Made by a program: the position numbers and the translations under genes
Source of the DNA: a virus
Reading direction: 5' to 3' (one strand)
IMG/VR virus record: IMGVR_UViG_3300035698_024877
Span: 31,338-95,337 of that record
DNA length: 64,000 nt
In this document: positions 59,672 to 59,800 of the stretch, one piece after another
How positions within the stretch are numbered: position 1 is the first letter of the stretch
Layout of the letters: each line of letters begins with the position of its first letter
Notes under the pieces: generated by a model
The model's input: only the letters and a program-made list of their open reading frames with translations
Told to the model about the DNA's origin: nothing
Databases searched by the model: none

Positions 59672-59800
59672 TGCGCGAGGCAAGATTGGAACTTGCATCT
59701 CTGTTACGGCTCCCATTACTTATATTATTACTAGGTAACCGGTTTAAGTAATAATTTTTCATGTAGCATACGCTCCAGGCTCTGTTTGAGCTACTCGCGC
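59672..59800 (-). ncRNA. tRNA-like RNA with about 75-nt hairpin replacing the anticodon arm
   Basis: GCGCGAG/CTCGCGC-A; TA-GCTC-AAACA-GAGC; insert with ATTATTACT/AGTAATAAT; AGAT; GCAAG-TTCCAAT-CTTGC. Confidence 0.75.

Follow-up and report, generated by a model that had tools for sequence, protein, structure and literature searches.

On the minus strand of the window, a 64,000-nt stretch of viral DNA from a 95-kb phage genome, positions 59800 to 59672 form a 129-nt cloverleaf without an anticodon arm. With a probability of about 0.5, this element is best explained as the gene for a non-decoding tRNA-shaped RNA, apparently derived from an arginine-type tRNA and situated in a minus-strand early transcription unit, the same unit that also carries tRNA-Tyr, tRNA-Leu and tRNA-Asn. 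Such an RNA is favoured by stems that are intact while the loops have changed, by placement 5 nt after a stop codon, by the low coding score of the overlapping frame, and by an architecture that recurs in other viral contigs; the strand and spacing, which are those of the real tRNAs, are also counted in its favour, as is the similar plan of RNA C in the T4 tRNA cluster. Counted against it are the orphan status of the element, its absence from the only relative of the phage (G001), an arm no more stable than shuffled sequence, the lack of an encoded CCA, and a noncanonical elbow, the elbow being a part touched by RNase P and other tRNA-binding factors. The original prediction had offered a choice between a tRNA mimic (a decoy for anticodon nucleases, a Y-RNA-like molecule, or a stable scaffold carrying a cargo hairpin) and an intron-containing tRNA in need of RtcB-type ligation. 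The non-decoding mimic is the best fit, and its architecture is found again elsewhere, but the cargo hairpin proved thermodynamically ordinary; neither the intron nor the Y-RNA-like version was borne out.

The tRNA body and its 78-nt arm

The same 129-nt extent (59672-59800, minus strand) was given by a match to the tRNA model RF00005, by the MFE cloverleaf and by a strict scanner for tRNA bodies. Read on the minus strand, the acceptor stem opens with GCGCGAG (59794-59800), which forms 7/7 Watson-Crick pairs with CUCGCGC (59679-59673), and is followed by U8 and A9 and then by the D arm GCUC-AAACA-GAGC (59779-59791), with a 4-bp stem and a 5-nt loop without GG. An irregular arm of 78 nt (59701-59778) occupies the place of the anticodon arm, after which the body resumes with the 4-nt variable region AGAU (59697-59700), the T arm GCAAG-UUCCAAU-CUUGC with its 5-bp stem (59680-59696), and the 3' acceptor strand CUCGCGC with the discriminator A (59672-59679, the A being 59672). 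All 16 of the 16 pairs in the body stems are Watson-Crick, with not one G-U among them, and the retained tRNA positions include U8, A14, U54, U55, C56, A58, the G53-C61 pair and A73. The perfect 7-bp acceptor stem, D arm, AGAT variable loop and T arm that had been described are therefore all present. Also correct was the statement that CCA is not encoded: the discriminator A is followed by CUC, so that the 3' end reads ACUC, unlike those of the three real tRNAs of the phage.

The loops depart from the canonical form. The D loop, AAACA, has no G18 or G19, an alternative D loop of 12 nt is likewise without GG, and position 57 in the T loop is C, so that the canonical elbow contacts are missing. 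A test for an anticodon arm, defined as a 5-bp stem and a 7-nt loop with U33 and a purine at 37, found the 78-nt insertion instead; having no anticodon stem-loop, the element cannot pair with a codon. A tmRNA tRNA-like domain was considered and rejected, as the relevant pair is G3-C70 rather than G3-U70, and no tmRNA was found in the 95-kb genome with ARAGORN -m.

The tRNA body is not a product of chance. The strict scanner demanded a 7-bp acceptor stem, a D arm, a 5-bp T stem, a TTCNA loop, the G53-C61 pair and a span of at most 320 nt; on both strands of about 315 kb, made up of the 95-kb genome (G000), its 186-kb relative (G001) and the viral loci L003 and L004, it returned the tRNAs called by ARAGORN and this element only, that is, without false positives. 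The match to RF00005 runs end to end at 34.5 bits (gathering score 29, E 1.3e-05) when a short region is searched, with a local insertion of 78 nt in place of the 18 anticodon-arm positions of the model; it is visible only in such a short-stretch search, and the speed filters lose the element in stretches of 10-64 kb. ARAGORN at default settings does not call the element. Folding of the whole element gives a z of -3.3 against shuffles.

The origin of the body was approached through its acceptor and D stems. The string composed of the acceptor strand, UA, GCUC and the matching 3' strand was sought in GTDB, where 81 of 119 matches lay in tRNA-Arg (CCG, ACG or UCU) and 31 of 119 in tRNA-Gly. The discriminator is A in the commonest of the matched tRNA-Arg sequences, as in the element, and U in the listed tRNA-Gly(CCC). 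Because the string belongs mostly to tRNA-Arg and the discriminator is A, the element looks like a derivative of an arginine-type tRNA. It has in common with canonical tRNA-Arg (RF00005) the acceptor stem, U8 and A9, the D stem, the T arm and the discriminator; it differs in having no anticodon arm, no G18 and G19 and no encoded CCA, and in its 5-nt D loop and C57.

The long hairpin that had been predicted in place of the anticodon arm held up as regards its pairings but not as regards its stability. The MFE fold of the arm contains CUG/CAG, GCG/CGU, GCU/AGC, CAU/AUG and AUUAUUACU/AGUAAUAAU, the listed pairings among them; folded alone, however, the arm reaches -13.5 kcal/mol with a z of only -0.56, and 51 of 200 shuffles fold as well. 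Its 60-nt windows have a G+C content of 32-37%, against 25-35% for most surrounding windows and 51.7-55.3% for the three real tRNAs. The sole unusual part of the arm is its 9-bp AU-rich tip, an apical hairpin (59724-59755, minus strand) with the 14-nt loop UAAACCGGUUACCU (59733-59746): a perfect 9-bp stem with a 14-nt loop was found in 26 of 5000 arm shuffles, and the 95-kb genome holds 32 such 9-bp-stem hairpins. Within the apical loop, the octamer AACCGGUU is self-complementary, and 9 nt are complementary to AGGUAACCG, which is situated towards the 3' end of E. coli 16S rRNA. Both the AACCGGUU and the 16S matches were noticed post hoc; with chance at about 0.03 for each, they are leads only. 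The arm has no further copies in the 95-kb genome or in G001, and as a single copy it was ruled out as a repeated mobile element.

Genomic setting and the search for relatives

The location among real tRNAs was as originally described, the Tyr, Leu and Asn genes all being on the same strand as the element. Nearest is tRNA-Tyr(GUA) (59383-59467, minus strand), the next gene downstream at 205 nt from the element, which encodes its CCA; tRNA-Leu, at 1.5 kb, and tRNA-Asn, at 5.4 kb, both encode CCA as well. Upstream is an ORF of 67 aa (59806-60009, minus strand) with a coding score of 0.36 per codon, the stop codon of which ends 5 nt before the element and for which no homologue was found among 5.8 billion proteins. 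A neighbouring ORF occurs also on a second contig, of 849 bp. Stop-codon recoding was tried as a cause of the small ORFs and discarded, there being no gain beyond expectation under TGA or TAG reassignment.

Several other structured sequences are found in this part of the window. A strongly folding stretch of 165 nt (60036-60200, minus strand; z -3.8) is flanked by a promoter-like site and by the ribosome-binding site of the 67-aa ORF. It matches nothing in Rfam and is not evidently related to the element; the stretch and the element bracket the tiny ORF. Two near-identical terminator-like hairpins, each with a 10-bp stem and a GAAA loop, are positioned at gene junctions (60305-60328 and 60566-60589, minus strand), and further related stem-loops, with AAAATCTTCATAGATA before each, are at 62337 and 63465. 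The apical hairpin of the arm was examined as a possible copy of this regional intergenic stem-loop family, and the sequences differ.

Some features at greater distance may also be recorded. The tRNA-Asn(GUU) (54230-54315, minus strand) has G73 but a long variable arm (86 nt in all, with a 4-bp extra arm), which is unusual in that the bacterial class II tRNAs are those for Leu, Ser and Tyr; the three canonical tRNAs of the contig are all long-armed. On the plus strand, at 4758-4835, a tRNA-like gene scores 42.5 bits on RF00005; it lacks CCA, its anticodon stem is irregular, and its anticodon loop is 8 nt long (ARAGORN anticodon 'cgaa'). This gene is the second-best match of the covariance model built for the element. 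A TnpB/Cas12f-like transposase gene (52394-53467, minus strand) directly follows the large terminase gene, with copies at two places in G001.

The only relative of the phage is G001 (186 kb), in which the terminase is 84% identical and the shared genes are about 70% identical at the DNA level, and which carries seven ordinary tRNAs. The element is absent from it by BLAST, by the strict scanner and by the covariance model, with nothing at the corresponding place; a 20-nt BLAST match there falls within a coding region and was set aside as chance. Exact pieces of 24, 29 and 20 nt and a gapped body pattern retrieved nothing from IMG/VR, the gapped pattern retrieved nothing from JGI metagenomes, and blastn against isolated phages gave chance matches only (E = 1). 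The covariance model of the element (R1) revealed no homologue in G001, L003, L004 or the T4 tRNA region (L018). Neighbouring proteins used as queries, one of 190 aa and one with a DUF932 domain, led to no further contigs, and a TerL alignment searched in metagenomes and GTDB genomes yielded only G001, or nothing. The element is thus an orphan among IMG/VR, JGI metagenomes, isolated phages and G001, and, having no homologue, offers neither covariation nor conservation evidence of its own.

Recurrence of the architecture and rival explanations

The architecture, as distinct from the sequence, is found in many viral contigs. A generic pattern consisting of UAGCUCA...AGAGC, then 55-85 nt, then GGUUCGAAUCC, with a spacing that excludes normal tRNAs, occurs at no fewer than 117 loci in IMG/VR. 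Among the matches listed, 79 of 120 have an acceptor stem of at least 6/7 bp at the tRNA place (60 distinct sequences, with inserts of 52-82 nt), compared with only 0-12 of 117 that close in a control in which the 3' strand was slid by 8-28 nt, and at least 54 different acceptor pairs are complementary. The recurring genes, again among the matches listed, are 102-134 nt long and mostly without CCA; about half of the loci listed are within 1.5 kb of a canonical tRNA, and the genes fall into conserved sub-families. With at least 60 distinct tRNA-shaped genes having varied but complementary acceptors, the architecture recurs. These genes (L140-L256) resemble the element in their closed acceptor, D arm and T arm, in the 52-82 nt between the two arms, and in the proximity of many of them to tRNAs; they differ in that their D and T loops are canonical, as the search pattern demanded, and in that they form sub-families where the element has no relatives. 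Model R1 ranks the long tRNA-shaped genes first, at 27-34 bits compared with 167 for the element itself, and gives these IMG/VR genes 18-34 bits, so that the shape is common to them and the element but the insert is not. In a 2023 catalogue of viral structured RNAs, tRNA-like candidates are mentioned but the word anticodon is never used (PMC10690425).

Two of these families may be described. One comprises L140 (3130-3263) and about 25 more IMG/VR loci, including L149, L153, L156, L159, L182, L183, L188-L190, L217, L228 and L236, with genes of 131-134 nt and an insert of 81-82 nt in which T-arm-like and D-arm-like hairpins of its own are contained inside a long stem; the family scores 39.1 bits on RF00005, its insert weakly matches YrlA (21.7 bits, E 0.018), and its acceptor stems differ between members yet remain complementary. 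In the other (L161, L193, L211, L212, L229, L162, L170, L231 and L194) the insert consists of a hairpin and, after it, a conserved ACAGCAA-like motif; 14 different acceptor stems occur, all complementary, and canonical tRNAs are near 12 of the 16 loci.

For the element itself, a course of maturation can be proposed from the parts it keeps, namely those read by host processing enzymes: the coaxial acceptor/T-arm helix and the D stem. RNase P would cut at G59800, 5 nt past the stop codon of the 67-aa ORF. Cleavage after A59672 would fall to a nuclease of tRNA 3' maturation (RNase Z, or RNase E with exonucleases), and the new 3' end may then receive CCA from the CCA-adding enzyme of the host. Besides freeing a stable RNA of about 129 nt, the two cuts would detach the mRNA upstream from the tRNA-Tyr precursor downstream. 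The tRNA body would then serve as a processing and stability scaffold, and the working end would be the 78-nt arm, chiefly its exposed 14-nt apical loop, presumably with a protein or RNA partner.

The main rival, possible though not the favoured account, is a decaying pseudogene of tRNA-Arg type that lost its anticodon arm by insertion and rearrangement and that may still be excised, to no function. Much of what sets the element apart from a working tRNA would suit decay: it is an orphan not found in G001, its arm is no more stable than shuffles and less G+C-rich than real tRNAs, the D loop is shortened and without GG, position 57 is C, CCA is missing where the real tRNAs keep it, and no default ARAGORN call is made. 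Against decay stand body stems in which 16 of 16 Watson-Crick pairs are intact while the loops have changed. A simple insertion does not explain the element, because no single excision restores an anticodon arm; the same architecture, with covarying stems, is kept in many other viral contigs, and dead DNA is rarely kept by phage genomes.

A decoy or sponge is a special case of the non-decoding RNA that names a function for it, and in this specific form is considered improbable. The target of the RNA would be some host factor that recognizes the acceptor/T-arm half of tRNA, for instance a defence nuclease directed at tRNA or an enzyme of modification or processing; alternatively, its apical loop would pair with another RNA. 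Possession of tRNAs of its own and of RtcB is typical of phages that face anticodon nucleases, and this phage carries tRNA-Tyr, tRNA-Asn and an RtcB-family gene; the tRNA-Arg-type body and an apical loop with both the self-complementary octamer and the 9-nt complement to the conserved 3' region of 16S rRNA would also be in keeping with such a role. Known anticodon nucleases, however, read the anticodon loop, and its absence here weakens the idea of a decoy for them in particular; the noncanonical elbow counts against a decoy as well, and the loop matches are subject to the post hoc chance given above.

A working tRNA with a short intron, removed by an endonuclease and with its halves sealed by the phage RtcB ligase, is very unlikely. 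The phage does encode an RtcB-family protein (24416-25153, plus strand; 245 aa), but this covers only positions 152-426 of the Pfam model. The G001 protein, 49% identical over the shared part, is full-length at 428 aa and has about 175 N-terminal residues that the phage protein is short of, and no N-terminal piece was detectable in the 95 kb. With introns allowed, ARAGORN does propose a tRNA-Ile(aat) with a 42-nt intron; the anticodon stem of this model is poor, and it is called only at the lowered threshold of -ps90, where six other low-scoring intron-bearing calls that are absent from the default run appear alongside it. A brute-force test, with either possible D arm, covered all single excisions that would keep position 26 and yield an anticodon stem-loop of 17 nt and a variable loop of 4-6 nt: the best gave 4/5 stem pairs, and U33 was never restored. 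The MFE fold has one 3-nt bulge, on the 5' strand beside the basal helix, then 3 bp, then a 1x2 loop, an order that is wrong for a bulge-helix-bulge. No group I intron, small ribozyme or other intron family matched the element at E up to 10, and a gene for a tRNA-intron endonuclease (PF01974) is absent from the 95-kb genome (64% complete). With G1-C72 and a long variable arm, the tRNA-Tyr of the phage is of the bacterial kind and so points to a bacterial host; bacteria are not known to have protein-dependent tRNA splicing. The remark in the original prediction that the insert is too short for a self-splicing group I intron is sound, these introns being far above 78 nt in size.

The Y-RNA-like version found no more support: YrlA (RF02553) has no match in the element at E up to 10, and TROVE/Ro60 (PF05731) is absent from the same 64%-complete genome and was not found by Pfam on the ORFs at 17510-20378. 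Genes for a CCA-adding enzyme and for peptidyl-tRNA hydrolase (PF01195) are likewise absent from that sequence. With no restoring excision, no bulge-helix-bulge, no ribozyme or YrlA match, no TROVE or endonuclease gene found, and an N-terminally short RtcB, both the intron and the Y-RNA readings are left unsupported. Of the checks that had been suggested, the bulge-helix-bulge search and the YrlA models turned out negative, and ARAGORN with introns gave only the poor call described above. Least credible is a protein-coding stretch with an incidental likeness to tRNA (ORF 59571-59762, 63 aa): an open frame does start inside the arm, with GGAG 10 nt upstream of its ATG, but its score is the lowest locally (0.06 per codon, neighbours 0.15-0.83), the frame overlapping tRNA-Tyr scores -0.04, and the tRNA body is far beyond chance.

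Significance and comparison with known systems

Phage tRNA genes serve in decoding and in escape from tRNA-cutting defences, and the small tRNA-like RNAs that lie beside them are different from these; RNA C and RNA D of T4 have had no known function for fifty years. If anticodon-less tRNA-shaped RNAs are made and matured like tRNAs, they would constitute a separate layer of phage-host interplay, and the engineered tRNA scaffold would have in them its natural counterparts. The non-decoding RNA proposed here would add an arginine-type body and a weakly structured arm to the tRNA-shaped RNAs. Having no relatives, the element alone is a poor test case, and the IMG/VR families (L140-L256) are better material. 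A more far-reaching proposal, offered as speculation and on the whole unlikely, is that the element belongs to a widespread class that was not found described in the literature searched, in which the tRNA body is a handle for host tRNA maturation only and an exchangeable module replaces the anticodon arm; here the palindromic loop might mediate dimerisation or pairing with the 3' region of 16S rRNA, or might bind a host tRNA-directed defence protein, to the benefit of the phage.

Bacterial RtcB often accompanies Ro60 and Y RNA, and YrlA (RF02553) resembles the element in that it does not decode and has helices like those of the T arm, D arm and acceptor. The topologies are opposite, however: the ends of YrlA are placed in a stem standing where the anticodon stem would be, and its acceptor is closed, whereas the element is arranged in reverse. 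TROVE proteins are present in some jumbo phages (PMC7824862). The engineered tRNA scaffold of Ponchon and Dardel likewise combines a tRNA body with a foreign hairpin in place of the anticodon arm, giving a chimera that the tRNA machinery of the host processes and stabilises (PMC3753655); it differs in being man-made, whereas the arm of the element is natural and weakly structured and its processing is only predicted.

The nearest described thing to the element is T4 RNA C (species 1 RNA, rnaC, 139 nt), which together with RNA D (rnaD) is encoded at 70908-71171 of NC_000866 and the function of which is still not known (PMC3014915, PMC9697503). There is no similarity of sequence or model to rnaC or rnaD, R1 finding nothing in the T4 locus. 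RNA C falls below the tRNA model, with tRNA-Sec as its best match at 17.5 bits compared with the 34.5 bits of the element on RF00005, and it has no D arm and an imperfect closing stem, whereas the element keeps the full tRNA body. The resemblance lies in setting and plan: RNA C, too, is a small non-decoding RNA gene within a phage tRNA cluster, adjoining tRNA-Arg, with a canonical T arm beside the closing stem of its 5' and 3' ends and with long hairpins at the places of the D and anticodon arms.
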